Part shown: positions 12,570 to 63,386 of the stretch, piece by piece
Numbering within the stretch: position 1 is the stretch's first letter
How the letters are laid out: the number at the start of each line of letters is the position of its first letter
From: Candidatus Bathyarchaeota archaeon
GTDB taxonomy: Archaea > Thermoproteota > Bathyarchaeia > Bathyarchaeales > DTEX01
Direction: 5' to 3'
NCBI GenBank assembly: GCA_963714275.1
Contig: CAVQNT010000002.1
Coordinates: 288,001-352,000, forward strand
DNA: 64,000 nucleotides
Position numbers and translations under genes: made by a program
The notes under the pieces: generated by a model
Databases searched by the model: none
What the model was told of the DNA's origin: nothing
The model's input: only the letters and a program-made list of their open reading frames with translations

Positions 12570-12604
12570 GTGCATTAAATTTTAACCCCCCAACCCTAAA
12601 CTAA
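12570..12604 (+). repeat. Junction motif GTGC + AT palindrome + C-rich arm
   Basis: GTGCATTAAATTTTAACCCCCCAACCCTAAAC; similar at 55312 and 62879. Confidence 0.7.
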
Positions 12605-13077: not shown

Positions 13078-13102
13078 TTTGGGTTTGGTGTTAAATTTTA
13101 AT
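13078..13102 (+). repeat. Junction motif G-rich arm + AT palindrome
   Basis: TTTGGGTTTGGTGTTAAATTTTAAT, inverted relative to 12570. Confidence 0.6.
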
Positions 13103-15874: not shown

Positions 15875-15907
15875 AGACAGACAGAGAAAAAGATTAATTT
15901 TTAATGA
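15875..15907 (-). repeat. Junction motif: AT palindrome + pyrimidine arm (candidate empty site)
   Basis: AGAAAAAGATTAATTTTTAATGA matches GAGAAAGATTAAAATTTAATGA at 62616. Confidence 0.55.
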
Positions 15908-39653: not shown

Positions 39654-40447
39654 TCTCCGTGCTTATAGGCTGTCATAAGTCATTATATTACTTGATAAAA
39701 GTGTCTTTTCTTCATTTCCTAATCTGAATTCTTCCATCTTATCTCCACCCCTTTATTAAATATCATAAACATGTTACTTAAATTAGCTGGCTGAACGGTT
39801 CGGGTTGAACTTGTACTTAATACCGATTGGTTTTGAATTTGTTCTTTTCATTCTTTTTATACAAAAAAAGATAAAACAGTTAGAGGAAAGTATAAAACAA
39901 TTAAGGAAAAGTTAAGGCGATTAGAGAATGCCAACTCTTAAACTTTCGTGGTCAGAGTTGAACAATTCTTGGAATCCATGTCTCTCGTTCGCCACGAAGG
40001 TATTTAGCGAACAAAAGAGCTTCCTCGCAAATCAGCGTTTCAAGGGTCTGTTTGTAGCCTACCTTTATTCTCGGAGCCTCGACCTTAATATTGTAGCTAG
40101 GGATTTTCTCTAGGGAGTTTTAGCTCAGGTTATTTCCGCAAAATACCTTTTATTTAAGCCTATTTTACATAGTTAAGTATGGATTATGGTTTAGTTGCCC
40201 TTGGCAGTCGGTGCAGGATTAACCTTTACTAGGAAAAATTCCGTTTAGCCCAGAAACCAACACAAACTAATGACCAAATGATTTGAGCCCACAGAACAAA
40301 CATGGCAAAATATAGTTTATCTTTTCATAATCTTTAGTGTTGTCACACAAACGGAAAACTCAGTTGTTACACAAATCAGACCAGATGAATCCATTAAGAC
40401 CAATGAACAAGCATGAAGAACATTATTGGAATGGAAAATATTGCTTG

Positions 40448-46017: not shown

Positions 46018-46147
46018 AATAATTTATCGATTGCACTTAAATTTTGGTCAAACAATTCTGATCACGCCCCAAGACATAACATTGCTGTCCGAATCTTGAA
46101 TTATGTGCTGGTTCCTAAACAGTTCCTGCAGATAGTAGACTTTTCAT

Positions 46148-47823: not shown

Positions 47824-48018
47824 TTCCTGTATTGATGACGGTATGAACATTACTTTTTAGAGGATTATGAGTTACCTCTTTTACTATTCAGTCTTACCAA
47901 CACTCAGTTAGCTAGAAAGTATTTTTTGGGTTTAGAATTAAAATTTAGGTAGATTTCCTCCCCTCCCTCATTTTTCACAGACTGTTTAAGTAAGCTTCGT
48001 TTCCAGCTACAATCTGAA

Positions 48019-48329
48019 ATGTTATCAACCAGAGAGAACCATTCAAAGGACCTTTGGAAAGATCTTGAGGCTGGGTTGGGAAGCAAAGCCCAGTTCAGAG
48101 TACTCTGGCATCTAATCTTGAAACCGGAAGAGGCATACACAAAGTACGGTTTAGTTAAGGCAACAGGGCTCAGAACCCTGCCATAACCGAACAGCTAGAA
48201 AGACTATCTGACCTTGGTTGGGTAAAGAAACATGAATCTTCTCCAATCACGTATCAAGCCTGCCTTGAGAATGAGGTCGTCAGACTCATTTATGAGCTCT
48301 TTTGTGAATTGAAAGGCGTTAAAATCTAG
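48019..48329 (+). CDS. Winged-helix protein; frameshift near 48180
   Basis: GLGSKAQFRVL..YTKYGLVKATGL..L..LGWVKK..YQ. Confidence 0.55.
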
Positions 48330-48366
48330 TTAGTAATCATCATTGAAAAAATGAGGGCGAGATTGT

Positions 48367-48522
48367 TTGAGGATCTTCAGACGCATCTCTAAGAAGAATT
48401 ATCTGCATGGAAAAGCAGTCTACAAGTACGAACGGCTCTACATCACTGTTCCAAAACGGTTTCAAAACATCGTGAAACCTTTCGTTGGGCAAGACAAAGT
48501 AAAGATTGAACTGGAAAACTGA
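48367..48522 (+). CDS. Truncated homolog of the 13570 protein
   Basis: RRISKKNYLHGKAVYKYERLYITVPKRFQNIVKPF. Confidence 0.6.
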   Translation: MRIFRRISKKNYLHGKAVYKYERLYITVPKRFQNIVKPFVGQDKVKIELEN

Positions 48523-48601
48523 AGGATTCGTGGTTAAGGTTCAGATCTTACCATGAACAGAGACCCTTAAGAGTGTCACAAAAAGGTTAAACTCGAATAG
48601 T

Positions 48602-48627
48602 GCGGGTTCAAATCTCTCTCAGCCCAC
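48602..48627 (+). other. Degenerate tRNA 3'-half (att-site relic)
   Basis: GCGGGTTCAAATC...GCCCAC resembles a T-arm plus acceptor strand; no 5' half present. Confidence 0.45.
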
Positions 48628-48639
48628 TTTTTAAGCATC

Positions 48640-48996
48640 ACAAATTTCCGTGCAGAACTTTCGATCAGGCCTTCTGATAACAGTGATTATGTGTACCAAT
48701 GAGTTGGGCGCCATGTTGCATCGTCTAACTTTTAAGAAGAAATATAGGGAAGGCTTGATTAGTTTGCTGTAAGCAAAAACGGAGATGTTTGAATGAAGGC
48801 CGATTATGATATCATATTTGAGGGAAAAAGACACAATAAAGAAGAATTCGTCTATTGCCCTTGGATAGAACCACCGGAAAAGAGAATGAAATACTGTAGT
48901 GCTTTCTATAGACTATGGGTAAGAGAAAGAGACGTGAAAACGGCGAAAGGATTCAGTAAAGACATTTAGTCGCAGTTTATGGACACGGAAATTTGT
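48640..48996. mobile_element. MITE-like unit with 13-bp terminal inverted repeats
   Basis: ACAAATTTCCGTG at 48640 and CACGGAAATTTGT at 48984; internal 58-aa ORF at 48793..48969. Confidence 0.55.
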
Positions 48997-49151
48997 TCCC
49001 TTTTTTAACAGACTTTACAAAACAAAGAAACACAAAAAAGAACCGATAACGTGGAACGACTTCAAAGAATTAACTCTGTAGCATCGACACCTAAACCCAA
49101 CCCTAGCCTAATACTCTGTTAACTCCGACTATCAGAATATAAAATGCAGTG

Positions 49152-49458
49152 TCACAACTCAAGTATGTTTTCTTTGGTGGTCTCCAGTTTACCAGAACGC
49201 GGGATGCTTAGTTGGAGTTCATTTCTGAACTCAGTAACATAGGCATCGTTGATCTTCACCTTGTCCCCAATGTTCACAGAATCAATTTTCTCTTCCCAGA
49301 GTGAAAGCTTTATGGATCCTGTCTCATCCTGAAGGGTTGCGTCAGCTCACCGAACGCGGCCCATAACGCGTATTAACTCTTCTCGGTTCGGATTTGTCAA
49401 CGATCTTTCCTTCAACCGTAATGCCGCTCATTCCCCGCTTTATTTCGTTTATCTTCAT
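49152..49458 (-). CDS. Single-OB-fold ssDNA-binding protein; frameshift near 49348
   Basis: MKINEIKRGMSGITVEGKIV..DATLQDETGSIKLSLW..GDKVKI. Confidence 0.8.
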
Positions 49459-49500
49459 TGGTTCATCATCAAGGTTAACCCTTTTCTGTCTAGTTACTTA

Positions 49501-49957
49501 TTAGCTTATGAGTTTCTTTGCCGCGATCTTAACGTCTTTTCTTTCGACTGTTTTTCCCGCAATTGGAATTTTCACTTTCTTGGTATTCTGCAAGAACTTC
49601 TCGGTTACAAAGAATACTTGCTCCTCGGTTCTTCCCCTTACTTCTCCTTCCATGAAATCAAGTGAGATTTTGGCACCAACACTTCAACAGTTTGATGCAT
49701 CTCAAAAAGCCGTAGCTGTCCCTTTTCTCAAAAGCCTCAGTGCTCAGATCCTTAGGCAACAACTTTTGTATTTTGTCCAGATTCCAGCCGTCTGATTTCT
49801 TCAGGACAAAATCGCAATCCCTTGTGTATCGTGAGAGTGACGTAAAAGCTCTAAGAGCATATCCACCAATCAAAACAATCTTGGGATTTTCAAATCCGTT
49901 AGTCTGCTTAGACAATTGCTCGATTATTCTTCCAATCTCTTCCTCTCTCAAGTTCAT
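49501..49957 (-). pseudogene. AbiEii-like nucleotidyltransferase toxin, frameshifted and shortened
   Basis: VLIGGYAL...RYTRDCDF. Confidence 0.65.
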
Positions 49958-49970
49958 GATTTCGGAATGC

Positions 49971-50682
49971 TTAACCAAGCTCAACAACCTTCTCGACTGC
50001 TTCATCAATTTCTCTTTTCACAAAGTCATCTTCCAATTTTGTCTCTCTATGCGGAAATTCAACCCCGCCTAACTCGCCTAACTGATGAAAGCCATACTCT
50101 AAAGCCTGTCTTAGCTCTAACGTTTGTCTTGGAAATTCTTTTCCAGTAAGACTCTTTGTACAATCTGTCCAAATTGATTTTATCCCGGTTCTCGTACAAA
50201 GTAGCGAATGCATCGGCAAAAGCCCATTTCTGCAAACACTCGATTACATTTTCTTCGATATCCTCAACAAGCAAGTTTCCAACTTTCCGATACTTGATTT
50301 TGGATGCGTCTTTCGAGTATTCGACTTCAACATTCCAACCTTTCTTCTTGGCAAATTCTTTCAATGCTTTTCCATAGGACTTGTCTTTGACTTTCAAGAC
50401 ATAAACGTCCCTGTGAATGAAATCATTGTTCCAGAAAGACGCGGCGGTTTGAGCAGAGACCACTTTGAAGTTCTTGTCTTTTTCCAAGAAGTCCCAGATG
50501 CCTTTGACTTCTGTAGGAACCCAATACCATCCCCACTTGACCCTTTCTATTGATCCTTCTTTGGCTAATTTGTTCAAGTATTCCTTGGCGTTTGGCTCAA
50601 TGTTTTTTATGGAGTTAACTTTAATCAAACTTCCTTTGAAGGGCCTCAATTTCTCGTTAAATTTTGTCAAGTATTTAGGCAT
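49971..50682 (-). CDS. AbiEi-like antitoxin; frameshift near 50115
   Basis: YLNKLAKEGSIERVKWGWY wHTH; directly upstream of the NTase. Confidence 0.65.
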
Positions 50683-50873
50683 CGTTGTTCACCTTTTATT
50701 ATTGTTTGGCAAACTACTTAAAATTATCTGTTCACCTTTTTAACTATTTTGGCAAACACTAGCTGACTAATACAACAGGCACACTAATCTCTGGATTGTG
50801 GAAAAAAAATAGAAAGACATCCACAACTCTAATGTAGCCTCGAATACGTAACGCTTGGGCATTATATCTTTAG

Positions 50874-51197
50874 TTAGATGGTCCAGTAAGAATGAAGCTT
50901 CAAGTCTTTATTGTTCACTTCGGCTCTCACAAATTCCACGATGTCTTCGTCCCTTATGTAAAGGTTTCCTGACTTGTCAGTGTGCAACGGTATGCCTGTC
51001 TTTCTAAGGCAATTCCCAACTGCGTTATCAATAAAAACATATTGTTTTTCGACAGCTGGCAAGATAAGCCTGAGACCTGTAAGGTGTCTAGCTGATACTC
51101 CCCGTTCAATATTGTAAGCAATGCTTTTAGGAGCATGCTCTATAATTAGTCTCTTAAACTCATCCCACGACTTCACTCTAATAATTTTGCCACTCAA
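50874..51197 (-). CDS. Hypothetical protein, last gene of the DGC/GcvH operon
   Basis: 107-aa ORF with GGGAG RBS. Confidence 0.6.
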   Translation of the reverse strand: MSGKIIRVKSWDEFKRLIIEHAPKSIAYNIERGVSARHLTGLRLILPAVEKQYVFIDNAVGNCLRKTGIPLHTDKSGNLYIRDEDIVEFVRAEVNNKDLKLHSYWTI

Positions 51198-51219
51198 GTT
51201 AATGCTCCCGTTTCATAAT

Positions 51220-51687
51220 TCATTTTTTCAGTCTTGAGCGTTCGTTTTCGATTTTTCGTCTCATTACGTTAAAATAAGATTCAGGGTCGAGAAGGTTTTC
51301 TTTGTCCCTTTCGAAGTCTTTGGTCTCAATCCTCACGAACCATCCCTTGCCATATGGATCTTGGTTTACGAGTTCCGGTTTCTGCTGAAGTTCCTCGTTT
51401 GTTTCTTTCACTACGCCTGATACTGGTGATATCAGGTCAAGCATGGTCTTAATTGCCTCGAACGAGCCGGCTTCGTCAAACTGTTCGACCACGGTGCCGG
51501 ACTCTGGTAACTCAACGAATATGATGTCTCCAGCCATGTTTTGTAAGAAGTCAGTTATGCCTACAGTCGCAAATTTCCCCTCCGGTCTCGCCCAACAGTC
51601 ATTCTCATTATAAAAACGGTCTAGAGGAACACGAAAAGTCCACTTGTCAACTCTTAATTCCAGATGGGTCTCACCCATTTCATTCAC
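51220..51687 (-). CDS. gcvH: Glycine cleavage H-like lipoyl-carrier protein
   Basis: VGITDF.Q..GDI.FVELP, EAIK (lipoyl Lys), SPVSG, NQDPYGKGW. Confidence 0.9.
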   Translation of the reverse strand: MNEMGETHLELRVDKWTFRVPLDRFYNENDCWARPEGKFATVGITDFLQNMAGDIIFVELPESGTVVEQFDEAGSFEAIKTMLDLISPVSGVVKETNEELQQKPELVNQDPYGKGWFVRIETKDFERDKENLLDPESYFNVMRRKIENERSRLKK

Positions 51688-52091
51688 CTATTTTCTGCAA
51701 GCAGTTTATCGATTGTTTCTGCAACTTCTTGCGCAATTATTTCAGCGAGTTTCTCTCCATTCGACCCTATGTTAGATGCGGAGTCAGGCGTTAGATTGTG
51801 CTTCTTGGCGCTGTCTGGGACGAAAGCTCTTCCTCTAATTTTTCCGCCGTTCTTAATCACCAATTTGGTTGCGCAACGTTCAGCGCAACCGTCTACAGTT
51901 ATGACTGGAAGACTCTTGATTAATTCAGAATAATGGCTGACACCAGCCAACAAGGGGGTAAGACAGATCATTTTGGCATTGTTTGGCCTAAGATTTTCCG
52001 TAACCTTGAAAACGCTTGCGCGAGCCACTGAGCCTAGGGCTTTGTCCATGCCCGCGCATGCCACCACAGCTACTTTCACACCTTCCATCAT
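51684..52091 (-). CDS. DGC-domain putative Zn-binding protein (third copy)
   Basis: ACAG, CL, VDGCAERCA. Confidence 0.85.
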   Translation of the reverse strand: MMEGVKVAVVACAGMDKALGSVARASVFKVTENLRPNNAKMICLTPLLAGVSHYSELIKSLPVITVDGCAERCATKLVIKNGGKIRGRAFVPDSAKKHNLTPDSASNIGSNGEKLAEIIAQEVAETIDKLLAENR

Positions 52092-52103
52092 GACTCCCTT
52101 CTC

Positions 52104-52523
52104 TTAGCGCTCCTTTTTCTGACCTAAGGCTTCGTCCACCTTCTTCGCTATCTCTTCAGCCACTTTCTCGGCTAACTCCATGTCCTCAGCGCTCAATTCG
52201 TCTCTTGACTTCAGATTGAGCTGAGGATACTTCTTCAGAATATCAGTGACTACGACAGTTGCGGTGGGCTTACCGCTATACTTCTTCGTCCCGATTTCAG
52301 CGCATCTCTTCTCGCAGCCATCCACCGTTATTGTGGGAAAAACGCGGGCAAAGGCCCTCTCGTCCTCGCTTCCAGCCAAGAAGAGGGGAAGACAGATCGT
52401 AACCGTCTCCCCAGGTCTCAGCTTCTCCAAAACGAGTCGTGTGGCAATTCTGGAGATTGTTCCCTCTGGAATCTCCTCGCCGCTACAGGAGATTATGCCA
52501 ACCTTGTTCATTGCCATACCCAT
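52104..52523 (-). CDS. DGC-domain protein (second copy)
   Basis: SCSG, CL, VDGCEKRCA. Confidence 0.85.
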   Translation of the reverse strand: MGMAMNKVGIISCSGEEIPEGTISRIATRLVLEKLRPGETVTICLPLFLAGSEDERAFARVFPTITVDGCEKRCAEIGTKKYSGKPTATVVVTDILKKYPQLNLKSRDELSAEDMELAEKVAEEIAKKVDEALGQKKER

Positions 52524-52942
52524 TATTCATCTTCTCCCTCTATTTTGTCGATCTCCTTTGCCACTTCGTCGGCTAGGAGGCTTGCCAGATTCTCTCCTTC
52601 AGCGTTTAACTTGATAACCCCCTCAGGTTTCAATCCCCTATGATTCCGTAGAACATCTGTGACCATTATGCTCCTTACCAGCCTGCCCTTTGAGGCTTCA
52701 ATATTCTTTTTCGAGCACTGGGCTGGGCAACCGTCTATCGAAATGCAAGGGTTCTCGCGGATCATCTTCAACGTCTCCTCATCACCTATTGTGAGCAGGG
52801 CCAGACATGTAGTCCTAGCCTGGTCTGGTCTGAGTTCCTCAATGACCTTGTATGCTGCTTTTCTGCCTACAGTCCCGAGGGACTTACCTATTCCGCTGCA
52901 AGGGATGACGAAGACATTATGTTTAGACACTTTTCTCTCCAC
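52523..52942 (-). CDS. DGC-domain protein (first copy)
   Basis: PCSG, CL, IDGCPAQCS. Confidence 0.85.
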   Translation of the reverse strand: MERKVSKHNVFVIPCSGIGKSLGTVGRKAAYKVIEELRPDQARTTCLALLTIGDEETLKMIRENPCISIDGCPAQCSKKNIEASKGRLVRSIMVTDVLRNHRGLKPEGVIKLNAEGENLASLLADEVAKEIDKIEGEDE

Positions 52943-52944
52943 CT

Positions 52945-53229
52945 TTAGTAGCCTCTCTTATCTTTGATTATCTTAAGAACATCTGGTTTGCTTGGAAAGT
53001 TCAGCGCGTCTGCAGCGCAAACTTTTCGGCAACTCCTGCAGAATACGACGCAATTGTCTGGGTTCTTTATTATGAGTTTGGGCGGGTTACCTTCAACACC
53101 GTAAACGTTGTGAGGACAGAATTTGAGGCATTGGGGTTCCCCATCGCACAGATTACACTTCTCATAGTCTATGATTGGTGACCATGGAATCTCCTTGCGT
53201 GGCACGCCCATATAGGCTTCCTCAGACAT
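52945..53229 (-). CDS. 2x[4Fe-4S] ferredoxin
   Basis: CNLC....CLKFCP and CVVFCRSCRKVC. Confidence 0.9.
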   Translation of the reverse strand: MSEEAYMGVPRKEIPWSPIIDYEKCNLCDGEPQCLKFCPHNVYGVEGNPPKLIIKNPDNCVVFCRSCRKVCAADALNFPSKPDVLKIIKDKRGY

Positions 53230-53593
53230 TTTTCCCCGTCTCCTTCAAAGCGTTCTTCACGACGTTCAAAGCTTCCTCCAATTTCATGTTTCTCACATCA
53301 AGCGGGATTAGATCCTTGTTGATGTCTAGGCCCGCTTTCGAGAAGGCGTCTCTGAAGAGCTTCCTCTGCATCACTGGCGCACAACCGGCTACAATGTATC
53401 TGCTTCCTTTCTTGAGGAACTCATCGAGGAAGCGTTCACCGTCCTCGTCGCAGAGCATGGGGTGGATGAAGGCGTACTCCACAGGATACTCGGTTCTTAT
53501 GATGTTGATGAAGTCCCAGATATCCAGCTGAGCAAAGCCTGGACATTTGCCTGTACAGACGCAGAATATGAAACCTATTTTACTATTTTCCAT
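53222..53593 (-). CDS. Stand-alone HdrA N-terminal-like Fe-S domain protein
   Basis: KIGFIFCVC, HPMLC, IVAGCAP...LFR...DVR. Confidence 0.75.
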   Translation of the reverse strand: MENSKIGFIFCVCTGKCPGFAQLDIWDFINIIRTEYPVEYAFIHPMLCDEDGERFLDEFLKKGSRYIVAGCAPVMQRKLFRDAFSKAGLDINKDLIPLDVRNMKLEEALNVVKNALKETGKNV

Positions 53594-53673
53594 AAATTTT
53601 CCCTTACTTTTTTAGGTTTGTTATTTTCGCCCTTTTTCGGTTCAATATTATTTGATGATGGGATATTCATAGC

Positions 53674-53687
53674 AATATTTAAATATT
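53674..53687. promoter_or_regulatory. Palindrome in the divergent promoter (bidirectional TATA box or operator)
   Basis: AATATTTAAATATT perfect palindrome between the two operons. Confidence 0.45.
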
Positions 53688-53709
53688 CTTATTAACTCAC
53701 TCATTAGAC

Positions 53710-54033
53710 ATGTATCCTAAGAAAAGTGGTTCAAACAGGTTTAAGGCGAGAATTTTTAACGCTCTTTCGGATGCGGTTAGACTTGACATAATCGAGTTTT
53801 TGCGTGAAGGAGAAAAATGCGTATGTGAGATAGTTCCGCACATTGGATTGATTCAGCCTGTGATTTCACGGCATTTAAAAATCCTAAAGGAATGTGGCAT
53901 TGTAAGAGACAGGAAAGCAGGGAATAGGCGACTTTATTCAATAACAGATCCTAGAGTACTTAAGATTGTGGACTCGGTGACTCCAGAATTTACTGAATCC
54001 ATTTCAAGATATTTGATTGAATTAATAGCTTAA
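53710..54033 (+). CDS. arsR: ArsR/SmtB repressor
   Basis: FNALSD..RL, EKCVCEI metalloid site, SRHLKIL. Confidence 0.9.
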   Translation: MYPKKSGSNRFKARIFNALSDAVRLDIIEFLREGEKCVCEIVPHIGLIQPVISRHLKILKECGIVRDRKAGNRRLYSITDPRVLKIVDSVTPEFTESISRYLIELIA

Positions 54034-54048
54034 ACGGGAGAAGGAACT

Positions 54049-55087
54049 TTGGAAAGCAAAGAAGAACATATGGAAAAAGAATCATCCCTTGGGCTCTTTG
54101 AGAAATACTTGACTGTTTGGATAGCGCTGTGCATAGTCGCAGGATTGCTTGTCGGAAGATTTCTGCCAGAATTTGGACAATTTATGGACTCTCTAAAATT
54201 TAGACAACTTTCAATTCCAATAGGCATTCTCCTATTCTTCATGATGTACCCCACGGTCGTGGGAATCCGGTTCAGCGACATAAAAAAAAGCAGCAAACAA
54301 TCCTAAACCCTTACTTGTCACTATCATTGCTAATTGGGTTATTGCTCCACCTCTGATGACGCTTTATGCAAACACTGTCTTAGCCGGCAATCCTCAGTAC
54401 ATCGCAGGGTGCATACTTCTCGGGCTATCTCCTTGCACAGCCATGGTTATGTGGTGGATGTTTCTTGCAAAAGGCGACATGGCACAGGGACTCATCAACA
54501 CAGCAGTCAACGCTTTGTTAATGCTCTTTCTGTATGCTCCACTTGCAGCCTTTTACTTGGGCGTAAGTAGTATACCTGTACCTTTGGACTTGATTGCTAT
54601 CAGTGTTTTGGTTTTCATAGCATTACCTGTAGCATCAGGCGCTATTTCAAGAAAGATAATATTAGAAAGAAAAGGAGAAGAATGGTTCAGCAGCACATAT
54701 CAACCAATTGTCGCAAAAATATCTATCATCGCCTTATTGACTACTTTAATAGTGCTTTTTTCCTTTGAAGGAGAAATAATAATTAATAATCCTCTCTTGG
54801 TCGCCTACCTTGCAGCACCAAATCTTATGCATTACGCCACCATGATCACGTGGACTTATCTTCTCGGATACTTTGCAGGCTGGAAATATGAGACAGCCAT
54901 AGATACCACGCTTATCGGGTCAAGCAGCCACTTCGAAGTCGCCATAGCCGTAGCCACAACACTTTACGGCATCGGATCAGGAGCAGCCTTAGCAACAGTC
55001 ATAGGACCATTAATGGAAGTACCCTTAATGCTTTCACTCGTAAAACTTGGCCTTCGCACCAGAAAATACTTTCCAAGAAAGAAATAG
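54049..55087 (+). CDS. acr3: Acr3 arsenite efflux permease; frameshift in A-run near 54285
   Basis: FEKYLTVW, MMYP, SPCTAMV, HFEVAIAVA, GPLMEVPLML. Confidence 0.92.
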
Positions 55088-55311
55088 TAGCTGACTCACG
55101 TTATTTTGATTGCCTGTAATAGAAGTCGTCTGAAGTGTGTTTTAGGAAAGTTTTTCTGCACTTTAGCTGAAAGGGTTAGCTGTTGATCTTGTCGTTTAGA
55201 TTTATGATGTAGAATATAAAACCCCGATTTATGATTATTTCGTGAAAATAAGTTAAATATGGTCTTTTTAACATAGTTTTCAACCCCAATCGATTGTTAA
55301 CAGTGGTGGTG

Positions 55312-55341
55312 GTGCATTGATTTTTAATTCCAAAACCAAAC
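55312..55341 (+). repeat. Junction motif GTGC + core + C-rich arm
   Basis: GTGCATTGATTTTTAATTCCAAAACCAAAC. Confidence 0.6.
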
Positions 55342-55380
55342 TTTCTCTTTCTGTAATTTATTTTTTCACGGTAAGCTTTT

Positions 55381-56029
55381 ATGAACCTGCAACTAAGAGA
55401 ATTTTGGATGAATATGCGGTCTTTATACAATGAACCTGCGATGGTCATTCCTTTTAAACATTATAAACATGATGGCAAAGTCGTCATATACTACGGGAAG
55501 AATGAAGATCCAGTTGAAGCTGGCTTCGACATCATTCCTAACTTAAATTTTGACATCAATTTGTGCCGTGGATTTCCAGTGATGCATGCTAGAATAGAAT
55601 ATTCAGGTCTTGGATACCGGCAGTTATTTGGCTGGATTCAGATAATAACAGATGAGTATTACCAGTCAGGCGAAAAAGGAAAGGTTAAGAAATCAGTTGT
55701 TGTTGATGTTGTTCCGTCAATGCAGGGCTTTGGTTTTCCATTTGCATCTTTCGGGTACCTGCCAGAGATGTTTGATGCACCTTGCTATAACATTGGAAAT
55801 TACGTTAAGCTGAAGATGGGTTGCGGACACTTTCCTAACAACCGTTCCCGGAAGGTCTATTGAAGAGAAGATATCGTGCATAAAGGGTTTCCGTTGGGGA
55901 TGCATTGAGTATGCAAATCCTAAACAGAACCCTCCTTCAATACTGCCGTTACAAGCCATCAGCAAAGATGTTTGGAACAGCCATCTCCAACTACTTAAAA
56001 AGCAATTTAAGAAATGGAAATTTTTGTAA
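55381..56029 (+). CDS. Hypothetical cargo protein; frameshift near 55815
   Basis: GFPVMHA..GWIQ..FDAP, continuing W.ADTFL..GFRWG in the next frame. Confidence 0.6.
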
Positions 56030-56062
56030 TATACACACGGGGACATGCAATGACATAGATAC

Positions 56063-56215
56063 GTTGGTTTAGGGTTTGGTTTAGGGATTAGATTATAATT
56101 TTTTCTTCTTTCTTGTTACGTTATGTTCTCTTCTGTTCTGTGTGCTCTCTATACTCTACTCTCTACACTACTCTATTCTGCACAAAAAAACACAAATAAA
56201 AAACACACACAACGC
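56063..56215 (+). repeat. Junction motif G-rich arm + core + long pyrimidine arm
   Basis: GGTTTAGGGTTTGGTTTAGGG-ATTAGATTATAAT-..GTTCTCTTCTGTTCTG..CTCTCTACACTACTCTA; the arm is an inverted homolog of 62541-62635. Confidence 0.8.
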
Positions 56216-56251
56216 AAAGCTCAGCTAGAATTAAAATGTTAGTAATTCAAA

Positions 56252-57307
56252 TTAACGGGTTTGTTCGTTGCCCCAAATGCCATGTGAAGGTTCAGGCTCC
56301 ACATATTTTCTTACTCTGACATTATCAAATCTAGAATAAGAGCCATAATGGTTTTGGAGAGATATTTCTCCAGAGGCAGTGTATTGGGAGTCTGTGGCAG
56401 TGGACTTTAGCACTCCATTACTGTAAATCCTAAAAGTCGATCCATAGATGACAAGTTTTACTTTTTGCCATTGGTTTGGGATACCGAATCTAGTAACAGA
56501 TGAGCCGAACGCTTGCCAATTATTATATGGAGGTTTCATCCAAGGCGACTCAGTTCCTGAACGACAATCCCACCTGCCTTTATACCCAGTGTTCAAACTA
56601 AAGGTTCCTCTAAACCCTATCTCAGGAAGTGCTTCAGTAGACGGGTAAACGTCAGCTTCTATAACGCCATTCAAGAACCCAGAATAACTTGCGTTAGAAC
56701 CAAGAACAGTGTGACCATAAGGGCTAGAGGTTACTCCTCCACCACAGACTAGATAACCTGATTCAATATAGATGTTAACACCGTTTTTGTGTTTTGTCCA
56801 TTTGCTCAAGTCTCCGCTAAAATCGTCAAAGAATATGAAGGTATTATATCCACTGCTTGTTGTAGTTGCTATGGAGTTGCCATAATAAAGATAAATTGTT
56901 TGAGCTTGTCCAGTTAAGTTGCCTGCTATCTCTACCCAAAAAGTTGCATTCTTACTAACATTCAAAGATTCCCGCCAATAATCCAATAGAATTCCGTCTA
57001 TAGTAGTGAATCGGATATCACCGAAATCGGTTCTAACCTTATTATTAATATACACGGTCTCTCCGTTGTCAGTTCCAGTACCATTTACTACAACAATCCT
57101 AATCTGGTAGTTAGTTCCCGCGTTTGTTCCAATCCCACTAATAATATGACTTTTTCGATAATTCCAATTATTATTAAACCACATTCTTACTATAGTTTGA
57201 GTGAAGTTAAGTGATTGTATTTCGTAAACAAAAGCGTATACTGCAGGTATTGAGATGCTCAAGATAATTAATATGATCCCTGCAATTTGAAGCCCCCTTC
57301 TCGTTAT
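56252..57307 (-). CDS. Secreted DUF2341/lectin-like domain protein
   Basis: Signal peptide (frame open to an ATA at 57307 after GGGGGA); WNYRKSH, DFGDIRFT, IYLYYGN, FFDDF. Confidence 0.8.
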   Translation of the reverse strand: MTRRGLQIAGIILIILSISIPAVYAFVYEIQSLNFTQTIVRMWFNNNWNYRKSHIISGIGTNAGTNYQIRIVVVNGTGTDNGETVYINNKVRTDFGDIRFTTIDGILLDYWRESLNVSKNATFWVEIAGNLTGQAQTIYLYYGNSIATTTSSGYNTFIFFDDFSGDLSKWTKHKNGVNIYIESGYLVCGGGVTSSPYGHTVLGSNASYSGFLNGVIEADVYPSTEALPEIGFRGTFSLNTGYKGRWDCRSGTESPWMKPPYNNWQAFGSSVTRFGIPNQWQKVKLVIYGSTFRIYSNGVLKSTATDSQYTASGEISLQNHYGSYSRFDNVRVRKYVEPEPSHGIWGNEQTR

Positions 57308-57317
57308 CCTTTCCCCC

Positions 57318-57740
57318 TTAGTTAATAATGCCTATGATAAGGGAGAGTATGGATGCTATGCCTGCTGATACTAGGAAAGACATCATCATAGTATTATTTA
57401 TGGTTAGAGGAAAAACGGGCGTTGTAAACCCGCTTATTGGTAGGTATACAGCTAATAATAATACTGCCCATATGCCGAATGTTACCAAAAAAATGTAATA
57501 GGGGGCTTTCTGCCTTACAGCCCCAGCGGATTTTAGGGTACCTACAGTTTTTGGCATGAAGCCTTGCTCAGAGGAGATTAAGGCTTTTCTGACTTTCTCG
57601 GTACTTATGATTTGTTTAGATTCCGTGAAGAACTCTTCTGCTCTCTCCTTAACTACGGTCATCTTTTCTTCTGAGAGCAGAGCTTTTGCTGCTTCAATAG
57701 TCCTTTCAAGGTTCCTTACTGAGTCCAAGGCTTCTCCCAC
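57318..57740 (-). CDS. Membrane protein with two C-terminal TM helices
   Basis: Hydrophobic C-terminus; lies between the two secreted genes. Confidence 0.6.
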   Translation of the reverse strand: MGEALDSVRNLERTIEAAKALLSEEKMTVVKERAEEFFTESKQIISTEKVRKALISSEQGFMPKTVGTLKSAGAVRQKAPYYIFLVTFGIWAVLLLAVYLPISGFTTPVFPLTINNTMMMSFLVSAGIASILSLIIGIIN

Positions 57741-57751
57741 CGAAACTAGGT

Positions 57752-58291
57752 CTAAGTACTTTCTGCTGTGGCTGTAATTGTCACGGTTGTTGCATGATCG
57801 GCTGAAACTGGCTTTGCAGTAGTGGTAACTTCAAAGTCGAAAGTCCAAGATCCTAGAACATCCAGATTGATTGCGCCCGAGTTTGGTGAAGTTAACGACA
57901 GAGTGGCTACGGTTTCACCTAATGTATGTGTGCTTCCTGCGGGTTTTGTGGCAATTTTTACAACAACATTAAATGTTGAGTACCATGTGCTTTGACTAGC
58001 CAAGTCACTGCTAGATAAATGCATGTAAACATTAGCTTCAGTTGTTACAATTGTAATGGCTGCACCAAGGTTCGAGCTATTCACCTTCGTATAAAGTAAT
58101 GTTTGTCCTTCTTTCAAGACACCAAAGGAAGAGCTACTTAGAGTTATGGTAGCAATTTCCTTTATCGTCTGAGTTAATGTTAGCTGCGCGGTTTCATAGA
58201 CATAGGCCGAGACCGAGGTGATGGTGATGCTCAACAGTACGAATAATATGCCGATTAGAGTTTTCCTTTTCATTTTCATAATATATTTCAC
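57752..58291 (-). CDS. Secreted Ser/Thr-rich beta protein, candidate filament subunit
   Basis: Signal peptide ending VSA, then YVYETAQLTLTQTI; GGAGTG RBS. Confidence 0.7.
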   Translation of the reverse strand: MKYIMKMKRKTLIGILFVLLSITITSVSAYVYETAQLTLTQTIKEIATITLSSSSFGVLKEGQTLLYTKVNSSNLGAAITIVTTEANVYMHLSSSDLASQSTWYSTFNVVVKIATKPAGSTHTLGETVATLSLTSPNSGAINLDVLGSWTFDFEVTTTAKPVSADHATTVTITATAEST

Positions 58292-58825
58292 TCCTTTTGT
58301 TCCTGAACAAACCTTCTAATTTTAACTATTTAAACCATTTCTAACAAATATGGACAGCATTTACCTTTTATGGAAAAAAACACGTTCATTTTGCCAAATA
58401 ACGCTAGAAATGAACATATATACCTGAAAACAATATTCAGCATCAATATCACTTGTCCATAAAGGTTCCAATCCGTCCATTCCTTAGTTTACAGAAAAGG
58501 CTAATTTTGGGGTATTATTTGTTATGAATTATTAATCCATATCTAGCTCGCTACCAGAAAAATGGATCAAACAAGCCTAGGAATCCGAGATTCTCTTTCA
58601 TGCCTTAGGTACTTAGCAAACAATAAAGCTCCTCGTTAATCAAGGTTTCAATGGTCTATCTTTTGCCGACTTTTATTCTTGCTAGCTAGCTATGTGTATG
58701 ACTTTTTTCAATTCCAATAATCCTCATTAACGTAACCAAATCAGACTCTGGCTATCGTAGCTTCTGTTCCTTTTTTAGGAAAGGATATATTTTTGGCTAA
58801 TATCATAATTCTGGAAGTGTTGGAT

Positions 58826-59281
58826 ATGGTAAAGGCGCTTATTCTGTATCATTCGCAAGAATTTGGTAACACTGCTGTTATGGCGGAGGCGCTTGCTGAA
58901 GGATTAAGAACTGCTGGCTGTGAAGTCGATTTATTTAACACAAATGATAAGCGCTTCGACCTAACAGAATTCCCTAAATATGACTGCGTAGCCTTCGGCT
59001 CACCAAATTACTACAGCTACATAGCGGGTGGATTAAAGACCTTTATGGATGACCATTACATCCAAGACGTCCGCAAGGGTTTAAAAGGAATTAAGGGAAA
59101 ACCTTACGCCCTTTTCTGTTCACATGGCGGAGGCACTGAAGTAAAGTCAGTGATGGAGGATATCTTCAAACGAGTGGGCACTCAAATTGGAAAAACTGTT
59201 GGATCATATGGAAAGCCAACTCTAGAAGTCTTGAACCAATGCAGAACTTTAGGTAAGAAACTTGCAGAGTCAGTTTCTTGA
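58826..59281 (+). CDS. Flavodoxin-family protein
   Basis: YHSQEFGNT, FGSPNYY, FCSHGGG. Confidence 0.88.
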   Translation: MVKALILYHSQEFGNTAVMAEALAEGLRTAGCEVDLFNTNDKRFDLTEFPKYDCVAFGSPNYYSYIAGGLKTFMDDHYIQDVRKGLKGIKGKPYALFCSHGGGTEVKSVMEDIFKRVGTQIGKTVGSYGKPTLEVLNQCRTLGKKLAESVS

Positions 59282-59490
59282 GTGAGCTAGCTAATTTGTA
59301 TCGATCAATCAACCTAGGACTTAATATATTTTTATCTAGAATCGTCTGGTCGTCAGCTCTTCCTATGCTTGTGCTGACTGTTTGACCAGCTGATTTATGA
59401 TGCGAAATTTATCCCTGTCTAAAAGTATCGAAAGAGTTAGATGATAGGATTTCAAGAGAAATGTGAAAAGTAAATGGCGCTGGACTCGAA

Positions 59491-60228
59491 TTGTATGATT
59501 TGAATGGACTTGAATGGTTGATAGTCTCGATATGTGCGCTTATGATTGGTCTTACTAAAACAGGAATTCCTGGTTTAGGTATTTTGGTTGTTTCGTTGAT
59601 GGCAAGCGTGTTTCCAGCTCGCGTCTCAACCGGCATAGTTCTTCCCATGCTGATGTTTGCAGACGTTTTCGCTGTGGGCTACTATCGCCGTCAAGCGGTT
59701 TGGTCTCATCTCTTACGTGTTATGCCATGGACTGTTTGTGGCGTTGTTCTAGGCTACCTGTTGCTGGGAACGGTTAACGATCAGCAGTTGAAACCCTTCA
59801 TAGGAATCATTGTGTTAGTTATGCTTGGAGTAAACTGGTGGTGGGAGCGGAAAAGCGAAAAAGTGTCAATTCCAACACGGTGGTGGTTTGCTGCAGGAAT
59901 CGGTGTAATCGCTGGCGTAACCACTATGATGGCTAACGCTGCAGGCTCCTTTATGGTAATTTATCTCTTAGCCATACGTTTGCCTAAAACCGAATTCATA
60001 GGCACAGGCGCTTGGTATTATCTTGTTTTGAATTGGTTTAAGGTTCCGTTCAGCTTAAGTCTCAGGCTCATAGATAGCCAATCATTACAATTCGACCTGA
60101 TTCTTTTTCCAGCAGTCGCCATCGGCGCATTAAGTGGCATAATAATACTGAAACATGTATCAGAAAAAAGATTCACAGTAATATTAGAAATCCTGACTGC
60201 AGCCGCTGCGTTTAGCCTTCTCTTGTAA
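59491..60228 (+). CDS. TauE/SafE-family permease
   Basis: GLTKTGIPGLG, TMMANAAG, NWFKVPF. Confidence 0.85.
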   Translation: MYDLNGLEWLIVSICALMIGLTKTGIPGLGILVVSLMASVFPARVSTGIVLPMLMFADVFAVGYYRRQAVWSHLLRVMPWTVCGVVLGYLLLGTVNDQQLKPFIGIIVLVMLGVNWWWERKSEKVSIPTRWWFAAGIGVIAGVTTMMANAAGSFMVIYLLAIRLPKTEFIGTGAWYYLVLNWFKVPFSLSLRLIDSQSLQFDLILFPAVAIGALSGIIILKHVSEKRFTVILEILTAAAAFSLLL

Positions 60229-60391
60229 GACTAGAATACTCGTAATGGATGAGGGTAAAAAGAAGCAGTTATCAAAGTAAAATAGTTAGACTGCCCTATT
60301 AGAAAGTTGGCAATGAAGCTAAACTGGACTTATAGGCTAGCTAACTCGGTTGGTTTGTAGTAGCAGAATATATTGAACCATCTGCAAAAAA

Positions 60392-61862
60392 TCAAGGGAA
60401 CTTAACGACGCCCGTTGTGCCATCGCTCAGGTAGCCGTTCAGTAGTTCGATGACGTGGTCGCCGTGATGAGGAAGCTTCCAGGCCCTGTGGTACAGAAAT
60501 CTCCTAAAGTCTGGATAGTATCCGGCCTTAACGAAGAAGGCTATCCCATCGTATAAATTTCTGAACAGGGGATCCTTCTGATCGTAGTCGAACGTGGGTA
60601 GGTTGTCTAGGTTGTCCTTTTTCTCCACGTTCGGGTTGCTGCGCAGGTAGCCGCTGTAGGCGAGCTTCCTCTCCATTAAGAGCGCTGAGGCGGATCTGAC
60701 TAAGTATGATTGGACATCCCCCCATTCTTGGTGCCTAAACACGGGATGGACGCCCTGGACGTGGGCTTTCCCCTCCTGGATGGACTCGATCAGGTTCAAT
60801 GTGGCGATGCGGAAGTGTTTGCCGCCTGTATCTTGTATTTCGACCTCGGCGATGTTGTCTGGCTTGTACTTGTAGGGCTTGCCCTCCAGCTGTCCGAAGC
60901 TCTGAGGGTACAGGTGCGACTGCAGCCGTTCCTTCCTAACGACTACAATCTTTCCATCCCCCGTGAAAATCGAGGCGCATTCGTTTTCGTCGAAGAACAG
61001 GAAGCGCGCCTTGTTAGCCTGTATGTCTGTTCCCATGCAGCTGCCAGAGCCTAGCCCGAAGAACAGCATCTCAAAGCCCATGTACAGTTTGCTTGGGTCC
61101 ACGTTCGATTCGATCTGCTTGGATAGATCACCCAATCGTTGCCCCAATTCCGCATTGAGCTTATTGTACGGCATGAGATCGCCAACAAGGCCGAAGATGT
61201 TTACGAAGTCATAGCTGAAGTAGACGAAAAGATCGCAGTACCTTGTGTAGAGTTCCTTTGCCGTTAGCCTGGGTAGGCTCGCAACCTTATCGTCACTATT
61301 CGAGTCGCTGTAGTTCGGCCAGGAAATCGTTAGGTCCCAGAAGACATATGGAACCAGAAAGATGTCGATGCGGAAGTTCTTCACGTTCGCGTCGATGTTT
61401 ATTCCGGGGGAGGGATTGTAGGTGATTGCGTGGTCTGGGTACACCTTGTTCTCGAATTCCATTCGAGCCCTCAATCCGCCGTCGATCCAGCGGATGTCCG
61501 TGACCTTCTTCGAGTACCAGTCGTGGAAGTAGATGTCTCCCAGGTTCGGCTGAAGCTGAATGAGGCCGCTGAATCCGCCCCCTGAACCCTGGAAACCGCT
61601 GAAGTCCACGCGCACGACGAAATCTCCAGGCTCCGCAGGATCATTAACCTCCAGTACACTTGATGTTGTTATTCTTCGATGGATCATGTTTCTTGATGAC
61701 ATCCTGCATTGAAGACTTGAACAAGGCGAACATTATCAGGTTCTCGGAGCCATCTGAGAGCCTCAGGTCGATCATCTGGCCATCGAAGCGAATGGAGAGG
61801 CACTCGAAGAAATTGCGTAGAATAACGGGCACGTCCGCGTCCGTGAGCGTGACGGTCTTCAC
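60392..61862 (-). CDS. High-GC hypothetical protein with DUF3892-like motif; 5'-truncated and frameshifted near 61690
   Basis: YLRSNPN...DNLDNLP; GC visibly higher than flanks. Confidence 0.55.
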
Positions 61863-61950
61863 GGAATTATCATGCGCAACCTTGCTTTTCTAGCTTTCCA
61901 CCACGCGCGTGTTTGGTGTCAGATAACTTGGTAGTGGAGCGTGATTGATT

Positions 61951-61989
61951 GTTTGGGTTTGGAATTAAAATTTAATCTTTCTCTCTCTC
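61951..61989 (+). repeat. Junction motif G-rich arm + core + pyrimidine arm
   Basis: GTTTGGGTTTGGA-ATTAAAATTTAAT-CTTTCTCTCTCTC. Confidence 0.75.
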
Positions 61990-62249
61990 AAGTAATATAT
62001 ACAAACAATCAAACGAAAGCCCCGTTTGAATTCCCCGTTTACCCGTCGCCACTAATCCTCCAGAATTCATATGTCTTCGACCTGCGCGCGCGCTGTAATC
62101 TGAGAGAGAGAGAGTGCTTTTGGTTCTACCAAAAATTTTAAGATTAGTTCGACATGAAATTACAATGTCAAGGGGAATTCCAGCATATTATCTTTCTGGA
62201 TTCTTCCTAGGCAAATAAACTTTAAAGGAATAAAGGAGGTGAGTGAAAA

Positions 62250-62534
62250 ATGATCTTTGTCTCTTTGAATAAGTTCAGGGGCAAGGCAACAAAAGAAGAC
62301 ATTGAGAAGACGAACAAGATTCTTGCCAGTGAGCCTAAGGTTAAAGTTCTAGCGTTCTATTGGACTCTTGGAAGGTACGACTCAATATTGATCCTCGAGG
62401 CACCTAATGAGAAGACTGTAATGAAGATACTTGTGCAGGCTGGGGAATATGTAACAACCGAAACAATGGTTGCCGTTCCAAGAGAAGAAGCAGTAAAGAC
62501 TTTTATAAATAAATGCTTGTGGGTACTCAGCTAA
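62250..62534 (+). CDS. GYD-domain protein
   Basis: FYWTLGRYD..EAPNE..TETMVA; GGAGGTGA RBS. Confidence 0.85.
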   Translation: MIFVSLNKFRGKATKEDIEKTNKILASEPKVKVLAFYWTLGRYDSILILEAPNEKTVMKILVQAGEYVTTETMVAVPREEAVKTFINKCLWVLS

Positions 62535-62540
62535 CTTTCC

Positions 62541-62637
62541 TTTTTTTATACAGAGAGTAGAGTAGTGTAGAGAGCACATATAACAGAACAGAAGAGAACG
62601 TAACAGAACGAGAGAGAGAAAGATTAAAATTTAATGA
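62541..62637 (-). repeat. Core + long pyrimidine arm (candidate empty site)
   Basis: Reverse complement aligns to 56087-56190. Confidence 0.8.
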
Positions 62638-62871
62638 AAAAATCTTTCAATGACCAATATCACTAACTACTGTATCGTTGATTAAATTCTTTTTTGTGAT
62701 TCAAAATACTTCTTTAATGGCTCTGGAAGGTCGTTCATTAATCTTGGATTAATTTCAAAAATTTATGGATATGTTCATATTCAAATTAGTTATAGTCGAT
62801 ATTGAACAAATTAAGCTCTTGAACACGCATTGCGAGCTTCGCCAGAAGCCAGTCAACATTCAATCATAAAA

Positions 62872-62914
62872 TGTGTGTGTGCATTAAATTTTAATCCCAA
62901 CCCGACCCAAACCC
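62872..62914 (+). repeat. Junction motif GTGC + core + C-rich arm
   Basis: TGTGTGTGTGC-ATTAAATTTTAAT-CCCAACCCGACCCAAACCC. Confidence 0.75.
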
Positions 62915-63070
62915 ACGTGCTGACGCTTTCTCATATCCTCATACTGAGGGAATTAATTTACTAATCAATCAAACAAACAGACTGACAGGGGAGACGCCTC
63001 TCCTCCTCCACTAGAAAAAGAAAGTCTTTTTATCTAGTTTCATTGAAATAATGATTTGGAGTGTTTTAAT

Positions 63071-63386
63071 ATGCCTCTATTCTTGTCGATTTCAAGGCAC
63101 ATGCCAGAAAACTGTCCCGTATTCAACGCAAAAACAAGAAAGGTCTACATGAACTGGTATAGCAAGCCTAGAAGGAATATTGAAGAAACATGGAGTGAGG
63201 CTAATTTGGGGGGGAAGTGTCTATACAGAACATCTGAGCGTCTATGTATTCGAAGCCCCAAGTTTAGAAGCCTTCCAAAAAGCTACCTTTGAACCAGATT
63301 TCGACGCAATACACGAGTACGAAACAGTCGAAACCAAATTAGTGGCAAGCATGGAAGATGCCATGAAAACGCTAAGTGAGCTATAA
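63071..63386 (+). CDS. Small dimeric alpha/beta-barrel-like protein; frameshift near 63165
   Basis: RHMPENCP...KKHGVRL..EH..VFEAPSLEAF. Confidence 0.6.

Follow-up and report, generated by a model that had tools for sequence, protein, structure and literature searches.

In this work, we analyzed a window of 64,000 nucleotides (G000:C2:288001-352000) of an archaeal genome, G000 (2.64 Mb in 10 contigs, 91% completeness), in which an AT-rich 13-bp palindrome, ATTAAAWTTTAAT, here called the core, brackets short gene-carrying units, including a single-gene unit at 55316-56099. Coordinates without a prefix are window positions, compared genomes are designated Gnnn and contigs Cn. Our results indicate that these units are probably Cas1 transposons lacking a polymerase, distributed mainly in Bathyarchaeia, for which the 13-bp core constitutes a site-specific target-site duplication (TSD). 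The units display terminal inverted repeats (TIRs), 13-bp direct repeats at their borders and, in several genomes, a stand-alone Cas1 gene within them, and the Cas1-like loci of G000 lie near cores far more often than random placement predicts; judging from this anatomy and co-occurrence, the stand-alone Cas1 is most likely the integrase of the units. An earlier note on the window had proposed a site-specific gene-cassette or mini-transposon system with a tyrosine recombinase as candidate catalyst, an interpretation that our results partly support.

The core motif and its distribution

The exact core occurs three times in the window (61964, 62623 and 62883) against 0.02 occurrences expected, and 14 sites match it with up to two mismatches against 6.4 expected, a number reached by none of 100 shuffles, so that its frequency is above chance. 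The nine-site motif observation of the earlier note was confirmed, as the core recurs at all nine positions that it had named and their flanks agree with the three contexts that it had distinguished, namely a C-rich arm after the core, a G-rich arm before it, and a CT-rich arm alone. The match to the core is exact at the three sites given above, with one mismatch at 12574, 13090 and 15893, and with two at 47937, 55316 and 56087.

Across G000, 39 exact cores were identified, of which 37 carry a G-rich arm on the 5′ side and/or a C-rich arm on the 3′ side (both arms in 20, one arm in 17). On the side away from the core, each arm starts as a simple repeat (CCCAAACCC, CTTTCTCTCTC, GCACACAC, TCCTTCC or CCACCACC) and often runs on into a G-poor tract of about 100 nt, these tracts falling into sequence families; over the first 20 nt outward, C goes up to 34% and G down to 7%. 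For the tests of gene context, duplication boundaries and arm pairing, a set of 88 cores was drawn from the 297 G000 matches with up to two mismatches, comprising the 39 exact cores, 38 of 51 one-mismatch cores (at least one arm required) and 11 of 207 two-mismatch cores (both arms required). Segments shorter than 8 kb between cores add up to 160 kb, approximately 6% of G000.

Among GTDB species genomes, the core followed by the CCCAAACCC arm was found in at least 109 stretches, with Bathyarchaeia or Bathyarchaeota in the titles of 72 of the 80 matches listed, and none was found in IMG/VR. The exact core was present in 10 of 30 relatives, the richest genomes after G000 holding 6, 4 and 2 copies, and the core-bearing relatives display the same arm architecture as G000. 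Further, a stricter 15-mer was found in 2-16 copies in each of five long Bathyarchaeia assemblies, often spaced 0.7-6 kb apart, with 0 copies of its reversed control.

Units, terminal inverted repeats and inherited arms

Of 49 pairs of adjacent cores less than 8 kb apart, 16 had facing inner arms of matching type, where 8.9 would be expected (p=0.004). TIRs in G000 measure 132 nt (99% identity) at C4:99115-105172, 127 nt (96%) at C2:931102-937519, about 71 nt at C7:143210-147638 and 195 nt (99.5%) at C6:469853-475249; those of G035 units measure 124 and 85 nt, and that of a G108 unit 271 nt (100%). Overall, the TIRs span 71-271 nt with 83-100% identity, inverted termini of the sort that casposons possess, which bears out the earlier claim that units with inverted ends are bracketed by copies of the core. 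Boundaries of high-identity duplications within G000 fall within 10 nt of a core in 7 of 320 cases, with 0.26 expected. In G035, three units stand in a row with common cores at 18620, 26619, 34328 and 39048, and two of them encode an intact Cas1.

In a Cas1 tree, constructed with the longest high-scoring segment pair per unit only, 5 of 5 CT-armed units grouped in one clade (support 100/99), and 4 of 4 units of the C7-like clade had CCCAAA arms. Since arm type tracks the Cas1 clade, the arms are considered inherited parts of the elements, a pattern of descent and not of co-evolution. The arms had previously been described as swappable; each core does carry two kinds of arm, but these are the ends of different neighboring elements placed on one duplicated core. 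Both arms of a single core were of the same type in only 4 of 88 cores, against 12.9 expected, a depletion that may reflect selection against long perfect palindromes. A hairpin or cruciform reading of the core was rejected, as the arms of a single core are rarely complementary (same type in these 4 of 88).

An indel of gene size between loci L042 and L061 has a core at its 5′ edge, these loci being 75-81% similar and too diverged to place the junctions. A metagenome scan for two cores 15-45 nt apart (core-N15-45-core) returned at least 119 stretches, nearly all of them unrelated AT-rich tandem repeats, and about seven Bathyarchaeia-like stretches whose 16-41-bp inserts are made up solely of a C arm and a G arm; random spacer capture thus found no support.

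The 13-bp target-site duplication

A palindrome cannot tell a duplicated site from a part of the element, and therefore asymmetric 13-mers were examined. Exact 13-mers abut the C-rich and G-rich ends in 9 of 14 Cas1 regions, five of them being non-palindromic. The exact 13-bp direct repeats that flank Cas1 units are ATTAAACTTTGGT in G024, ATTAATGCGTAAT in G108, ATTAAAATTTAGT and GCATAAAGTTATT in G083, CCATAGTCTTATC in G160 (where this sequence or near copies also occur at two further units), ACTAAATTTTAAT, ATTAAATTTTAAT and ATTAAAATTTAAT in G000, and ATTAAATTTTAAT in G035. The variant ACTAAATTTTAAT, which is asymmetric, lies in direct orientation on both sides of the C2:931102 unit of G000. 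The length of the repeat was set at 13 bp because the bases on either side differ in G108 and G083:C79.

Given that non-palindromic exact direct repeats flank units in other Bathyarchaeia, the 13-mer is copied on insertion rather than being part of the element, in agreement with the earlier suggestion that insertion duplicates the core; and since the 13-mers differ between genomes, the preferred target varies by lineage. In G160 (loci L267, L268 and L269), the same layout of G arm, 13-mer and C arm is found with another non-palindromic 13-mer, GATAAGACTATGG, which implies that target specificity has shifted in this lineage. A half-site model, with TTTAAT/ATTAAA at the unit ends and insertion in the middle of the palindrome, was discarded, as the 13-mers of G024, G108 and G083 are non-palindromic and the left ends lack TTTAAT.

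Stand-alone Cas1 and gene content of the units

A Pfam search of the 123 ORFs (open reading frames) of core-bounded segments identified Cas1 in three (PF01867, 7.8e-46 and 3.2e-41 among them), and all seven PF01867 matches of G000 lie within or beside core-bounded units. Of these, two genes are intact (344 aa each, with 56.6% identity between them), one carries a frameshift and the others are fragments. Cas1 genes lie at C7:144190-145224, in a unit with CCCAAA arms, and at C4:100201-101235, in a unit with CT arms. A tblastn search adds about 20 short C-terminal remnants, two of them in the window, so that G000 holds 2 intact and approximately 25 decayed copies. A core is found within 3.5 kb of 22 of the 27 Cas1-like loci, where random placement predicts 4.4 and never gave more than 11 in 2000 draws. 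The earlier reader could not see Cas1, because the window contains only the two short remnants. Decayed copies most often keep the last 30-70 codons, both in G000 (e.g., C2:483593-483703, C4:123936-124022 and C5:87759-87896) and in G010, G002, G031 and G032; this bias may arise because the 3′ end of the gene adjoins the unit end in some units, at a distance of 50-125 nt in G001:C11 and G032:C1:984817.

The protein passes the generic Cas1 model TIGR00287 (139-161 bits, cut-off 71.7) and none of the Cas1 subtype models. At least 120 database protein clusters are 65% or more identical to the query Cas1, and those that are named are called only 'CRISPR-associated Cas1', one coming from Hodarchaeales and the others from Bathyarchaeia. 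Aligned to structure 4n06, the protein keeps the E in 'feaKys', the H in 'gflH' and the D/E in 'cDfqE', which we take to be the Cas1 catalytic residues. This reading of the motifs follows in part a published account of the catalytic residues (PMC9939771). Judged by these motifs, the units would encode a Cas1 homologue with catalytic residues, as is expected of casposons.

No Cas2 was found with the stand-alone Cas1 in G000 (91% complete), nor any CRISPR array in a crude k-mer scan of this genome (18-mers spaced 45-110 nt). No family B DNA polymerase (PolB) was present among the ORFs of the C4, C7 and G035 units, the three PF00136 loci of G000 lying outside units, and a search for protein-primed PolB (PF03175) gave no match, as did its control. 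Adjoining cas1 is a conserved partner, an AbrB/MazE-like ORF of 52-53 aa (1e-8), and the C4 unit also has a winged helix-turn-helix (HTH) ORF and a Zn-ribbon ORF; besides Cas1, the genes common to units are small ORFs of 52-177 aa only. The cargo includes a PDC-S45-like ORF (4.9e-17) and, in other units, AbiV HEPN, serpin, MBL-fold, SnoaL, methyltransferase and glycoside hydrolase genes. In a class-wide sample of 150 genomes, core+CC was present in 15 (control: one match) and the close Cas1 family in 22, and both were located within 2 kb on one contig in several genomes (e.g., G103:C14, G111:C18, G143:C22 and G119:C198).

Proposed mechanism and its weak points

The longest units, which we read as autonomous, span 3.4-8 kb and encode Cas1 together with the small AbrB/MazE-like gene, often accompanied by small HTH or Zn-ribbon ORFs, and with variable cargo that is defence-like in places. 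Their ends are TIRs of 20-270 nt, with the outermost 10-25 nt made of simple repeats of the CCCAAA, CT, CA, TCC or CCAA type, each strand being C-rich at 5′ and G-rich at 3′. Cas1 would join both G-rich 3′ ends to opposite strands of a preferred 13-bp site (ATTAAAWTTTAAT in the G000 lineage) with a 13-bp stagger, and gap repair would then leave one copy of the site per side. Each copy would stay a target, such that later insertions could build runs of core-unit-core-unit-core, and a core would have two different arms because neighboring units share it. The single-gene units (55316-56099, 12574-13102 and 61964-62635) are best regarded as Cas1-less relatives or decay products, presumably moved in trans. 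Catalysis by Cas1, the chemistry of the stagger and mobilization in trans are what we infer from comparison of sequences.

Several observations weigh against this proposal. The best match of the protein among solved structures is a CRISPR Cas1, 4n06 (4e-24), which ranks above 6opm (4e-11), presumably the M. mazei casposase, and therefore kinship with casposases in particular is not established. Most units are devoid of Cas1, the window itself having two Cas1 remnants only, and in a cross-tabulation of the class-wide sample the close Cas1 accompanies core+CC in 7 of 15 genomes, being present also in 15 of the 135 that lack core+CC. Furthermore, the central base of the core, W, is not a clean marker of duplication: 29 of 49 adjacent core pairs agree in it (p=0.13), and only 4 of the 12 strict-TIR pairs do so, the latter list having been cleared of seven redundant loci and including some redundant rows. 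In the very young C6:469853 unit, W is A at one border and T at the opposite one; such flips might come from template switching inside the palindrome. No exact 13-mer pair was found in 5 of the 14 Cas1 regions; L267 and L269 have near-identical repeats only, as judged by eye, L271 has none, L146 is truncated, and the repeats of G035X differ at W, its one listed pair being a chance match. The two cores of the 55316-56099 unit agree with each other at 9 of 13 positions only. Finally, no strain-level pair of filled and empty alleles was found and no movement was observed. In a comparison of four metagenome contig sets with 44001-64000, the joints obtained (56210>61964 and similar) have flanks no longer than 30 nt, fall in repeated arms and are explained by repeats, and no synteny of 50000-64000, as a comparison with empty sites would require, was found in six same-genus genomes.

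Alternative explanations

One alternative, which we regard as unlikely, accepts the units as real transposons with TIRs and TSDs and takes Cas1 as cargo or a remnant, in which case the catalyst would be some other enzyme, whose gene is either one of the unassigned unit ORFs or located elsewhere. A large number of the ORFs in units match no family, most units are without Cas1, and the protein is nearer to the CRISPR Cas1 structure than to 6opm; moreover, units carry defence-type cargo (the PDC-S45-like ORF and AbiV HEPN), and a defence-derived Cas1 could be carried likewise. However, Cas1 is the sole recurrent enzyme in the long-TIR units of G000, G035, G024, G083, G108 and G160, units share besides it only the small ORFs of 52-177 aa, 22 of the 27 Cas1-like loci are near cores, and a 13-bp staggered duplication fits Cas1-family integrases.

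Very improbable, in our estimation, is a signalling role of the core in host expression or chromatin, for instance as a palindromic bidirectional promoter resembling a BRE (transcription factor B recognition element) and TATA box, as a terminator or as an insulator, with the arms being selected flanks and mobile elements merely adjacent. By crude ORF-based gene calls, 84 of the 88 selected cores are intergenic; ATTAAA is similar to the archaeal BRE consensus and WTTTAAT to a TATA box; T-runs often precede cores; and the motif is conserved across the class. Against this, 82 arms point to a gene start and 86 to a gene end, the orientation classes of the flanking genes follow the background (17 convergent and 15 divergent cases, crude gene calls), the rRNA promoters of G000 are ordinary AAAG-TTTATWW boxes and not cores, cores cluster in accessory regions without synteny within the genus, and unrelated non-palindromic 13-mers occur elsewhere as direct repeats in the same position, which a fixed signal would not explain. 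Promoter or terminator function as the main explanation was likewise rejected after inspection of crude gene calls, flanking orientation, upstream k-mers and rRNA flanks, which revealed no orientation bias; a fixed position upstream of co-oriented genes, as in archaeal promoters, was not observed, 17 of 84 cores lying between convergent genes. One exact core is located 135 nt past the 3′ end of the 16S gene, right after a series of T-runs; the small-subunit rRNA of G000 matches RF01959 with 1492 bits, and the 16S and 23S rRNA genes are unlinked (C6:491752-493254 and C2:815015-818083, on separate contigs).

Least credible of all is an integron-like system in which circular one-core cassettes recombine with a chromosomal core via a tyrosine recombinase, e.g., that at 19263-20198: recombination at att sites also leaves direct repeats around an insert, neighboring units do have one common core, W discordance would fit recombination of two independent cores, and the window integrase matches XerA/integron integrases weakly (65.7 bits, cut-off 220), but none of the seven loci of the integrase family in G000 is within 3.5 kb of a core, the repeats are abutted by long TIRs typical of transposons and not of integrase elements, the 13-mers vary by site within a lineage (ATTAAAATTTAGT and GCATAAAGTTATT in G083) as a duplicated target would, and ORF orientation inside units is non-uniform. 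The Zn-ribbon tyrosine recombinase at 18854-20198, formerly put forward as the catalyst, loses its candidacy with these seven loci, the nearest of which is 4.6 kb from a core; the accompanying remark that the system is unlike integron attC arrays does hold, as no attC-type site was found and the arms face gene starts and gene ends about equally (82 and 86 times). The block at 16273-20198, which consists of a ParB-like gene, a Zn-ribbon ORF and the tyrosine integrase, has paralogues at C4:11862-15526, C6:368739-370260, C10:20882-22822 and C2:557842-559493, and seems to represent another family of integrated elements, unrelated to the core-flanked units.

Comparison with known systems

Casposons, as described in two published accounts, combine a Cas1-solo with PolB, TIRs and TSDs of 14-15 bp, are 8-20 kb in size and use targets that contain a palindrome; tandem insertion, with the TSD itself as target, also takes place (PMC9939771; PMC10359463). 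Relative to these descriptions, the Bathyarchaeia units share a stand-alone Cas1 inside a TIR unit with a TSD (13 bp here, against 14-15 bp in MetMaz-C1 and A. boonei; exact direct repeats in the 9 of 14 Cas1 regions), as well as a sequence-specific target of palindromic type and tandem insertion into the duplicated site. They differ in that no PolB was found in any unit examined, and they are therefore not self-synthesizing; in their size of 3.4-8 kb, against the 8-20 kb of the casposons so described; in their ends of simple-sequence repeats; in their host class, Bathyarchaeia; and in their high copy number (about 25 decayed Cas1 in G000), with many single-gene, Cas1-less units.

As in CRISPR adaptation, a Cas1-family integrase would make a staggered attack on the borders of a short, partly palindromic sequence that becomes duplicated, and reuse of the duplicated sequence would give runs of repeat-insert-repeat. 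In contrast, the units have no Cas2, regular array or leader, the 'repeat' is of 13 bp, and what is inserted is a gene-carrying unit possessing inverted ends of its own instead of a spacer of 30-40 bp; a CRISPR array proper, with regular repeats of at least 23 bp, spacer-sized inserts and Cas2, was not found in G000 (91% complete) with the crude scan. With integron cassettes, the units share single-gene modules parted by one common recombination-type site and recurring in varied contexts; unlike these, they lack an attC-like structure, a linked tyrosine recombinase, and a common orientation or promoter, and have long TIRs. Neither a linked IntI-type recombinase nor attI/attC was found, the sites being 13-bp duplications beside TIRs. 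Finally, as in miniature inverted-repeat transposable elements and other non-autonomous TIR elements, the Cas1-less units share the types of ends and the flanking 13-mer of the units that encode Cas1; however, most of them are not miniature and non-coding, but carry an intact or decayed gene in 0.5-3 kb, with a few of 16-41 bp consisting of arms only. No published description of such Bathyarchaeia elements was found in the open-licence literature, the supplementary tables of the casposon papers being outside this scope.

Casposons, of which families 1-4 are distinguished, are rare, large and known from few lineages, and they occupy a central place in the view that a Cas1 transposon gave rise to CRISPR adaptation. 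We advance, as a tentative and rather doubtful possibility, that Bathyarchaeia harbor site-specific, polymerase-less Cas1 transposons whose re-insertion into their own 13-bp target, building runs of repeat-insert-repeat, could constitute a living mechanistic analogue of the casposon-to-CRISPR-array step, and maybe a platform throughout the host for the shuffling of single genes, defence genes among them, from locus to locus and from genome to genome. The family is abundant, compact and polymerase-less; its target is short and defined, and many of its relatives are decayed or lack Cas1. If the proposal holds, these elements would provide tractable substrates for studying how a Cas1 integrase measures its stagger and recognizes DNA ends and target, they would explain a large share of the accessory repeat-rich DNA in a widespread class of sediment archaea, and many Bathyarchaeia 'Cas1' annotations would not be CRISPR genes.

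The unit at 55316-56099 and other features of the window

Both cores of the single-gene unit are degenerate copies and are credible because of their arms only (Table 1). The unit looks like an old Cas1-less insertion with CCCAAA-type ends and decayed 13-mers. The in-frame part of its cargo ORF covers 55381-55863, with reading resumed in another frame to approximately 56030; the ORF gave no match in Pfam or NCBIfam, and no paralogue in G000 by tblastn. The filled form of the locus is spanned, from 55249 to 56280, by a metagenome contig (X2) of another study. Pairs of left and right sites had been said to enclose exactly one gene each, and this is the case both here, with a single frameshifted ORF, and at 12574-13102, with one 107-aa ORF whose assignment to TIGR04076 was verified. 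The TIGR04076 unit (12661-13102) has 95%-identity copies at C6:364609-365647 and C10:14240-14683, and sequence similarity with the C10 copy breaks off precisely at the core's outer edge.

Table 1. Coordinates of cores, terminal arms, cargo genes and Cas1 remnants in the window (mismatches are relative to ATTAAAWTTTAAT).
Feature	Position	Strand	Remarks
Core ATTAAATTTTAAC	12574..12586	.	Left copy at the TIGR04076 unit; 1 mismatch
TIGR04076-family cargo gene, 107 aa	12695..13018	-	89.3 bits, cut-off 33
Core GTTAAATTTTAAT	13090..13102	.	Right copy at the TIGR04076 unit; 1 mismatch
Core ATTAATTTTTAAT	15893..15905	.	GA-rich arm on the 5′ side only; 1 mismatch
Cas1 C-terminus remnant (about aa 291-342)	39961..40113 (C2:327961-328113)	-	tblastn
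Core-like ATTAAAATTTAGG	47937..47949	.	GGGTTTAGA arm 5′; 2 mismatches
Degenerate core ATTGATTTTTAAT	55316..55328	.	Left 13-bp copy of the single-gene unit; GGTGGTGGTGC 5′, TCCAAAACCAAAC 3′; 2 mismatches
C-rich left terminal arm of the single-gene unit, TCCAAAACCAAAC	55329..55341	+	CCCAAA arm class
Cargo ORF, no known family	55381..56030	+	Frameshift near 55820; frame 1 encodes 160 aa and frame 2 about 69 aa more
G-rich right terminal arm of the single-gene unit, GTTGGTTTAGGGTTTGGTTTAGGG	56063..56086	+	Inverted counterpart of the CCCAAA-type left arm
Degenerate core ATTAGATTATAAT	56087..56099	.	Common to the single-gene unit on the left and the 6.5-kb unit on the right; GGTTTAGGGTTTGGTTTAGGG 5′, CT-rich 3′; 2 mismatches
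CT-rich, G-poor TIR of the 6.5-kb unit 56087-62635	56100..56215	+	Partner 62552-62622
Cas1 C-terminus remnant (about aa 304-342) in the 56087-62635 unit	58570..58685 (C2:346570-346685)	-	tblastn, with both intact Cas1 proteins
Exact core ATTAAAATTTAAT	61964..61976	.	TTTGGGTTTGGA arm 5′, CTTTCTCTCTCTC 3′
94-aa ORF in the 659-bp unit 61964-62635	62250..62534	+	Sole ORF of at least 50 aa retained by the crude gene caller
CT-rich TIR, partner of 56100-56164	62552..62622	-	Read on the minus strand
Exact core ATTAAAATTTAAT	62623..62635	.	Arm on the 5′ side only
Exact core ATTAAATTTTAAT	62883..62895	.	GTGTGTGTGC arm 5′, CCCAACCCGACCCAAACCC 3′

To the right of the single-gene unit, the segment 56087-56164 matches 62552-62635, taken as reverse complement, at 80% identity, and the TIR family of this 6.5-kb unit is also present in G002, G003, G004 and G006 as well as at several other G000 loci. 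A DUF2341 gene at 56251-57242 is duplicated at C7:28053-29044 with 98.8% identity and boundaries nearly at the ORF ends; since the two copies are flanked by different TIR families, exchange of cargo between units is suggested. In the 61964-62635 unit, the flanking cores are identical and the inner arms are both of the CT type; its ORF is GYD-like by eye, from the translation alone, the scored GYD domain belonging to an ORF of another unit. The 5′ arm of the 62883 core, along with 30 nt beyond it, recurs at C3:77829-77874.

Elsewhere in the window, a repeat of about 400 nt at 11889-12378, just left of the 12574 core, and at 46074-46495 has at least eight copies in G000 with 78-96% identity (C10:2652, C2:255562, C7:140573, C5:85367, C6:363094, C4:15974 and C2:166741). 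The genes for the carbamoyl-phosphate synthase large chain and argininosuccinate lyase (25305-28660 and 29779-31267) are each broken into two or three ORFs, which points to frameshifts; these genes could be pseudogenes, or the shifts could stem from misassembly. In the left, low-GC portion of the window (3463-5431 and 8032-10098), a D12-class adenine methyltransferase is encoded beside an N4/N6 methyltransferase, followed by an NB-ARC/TPR STAND-type ATPase.

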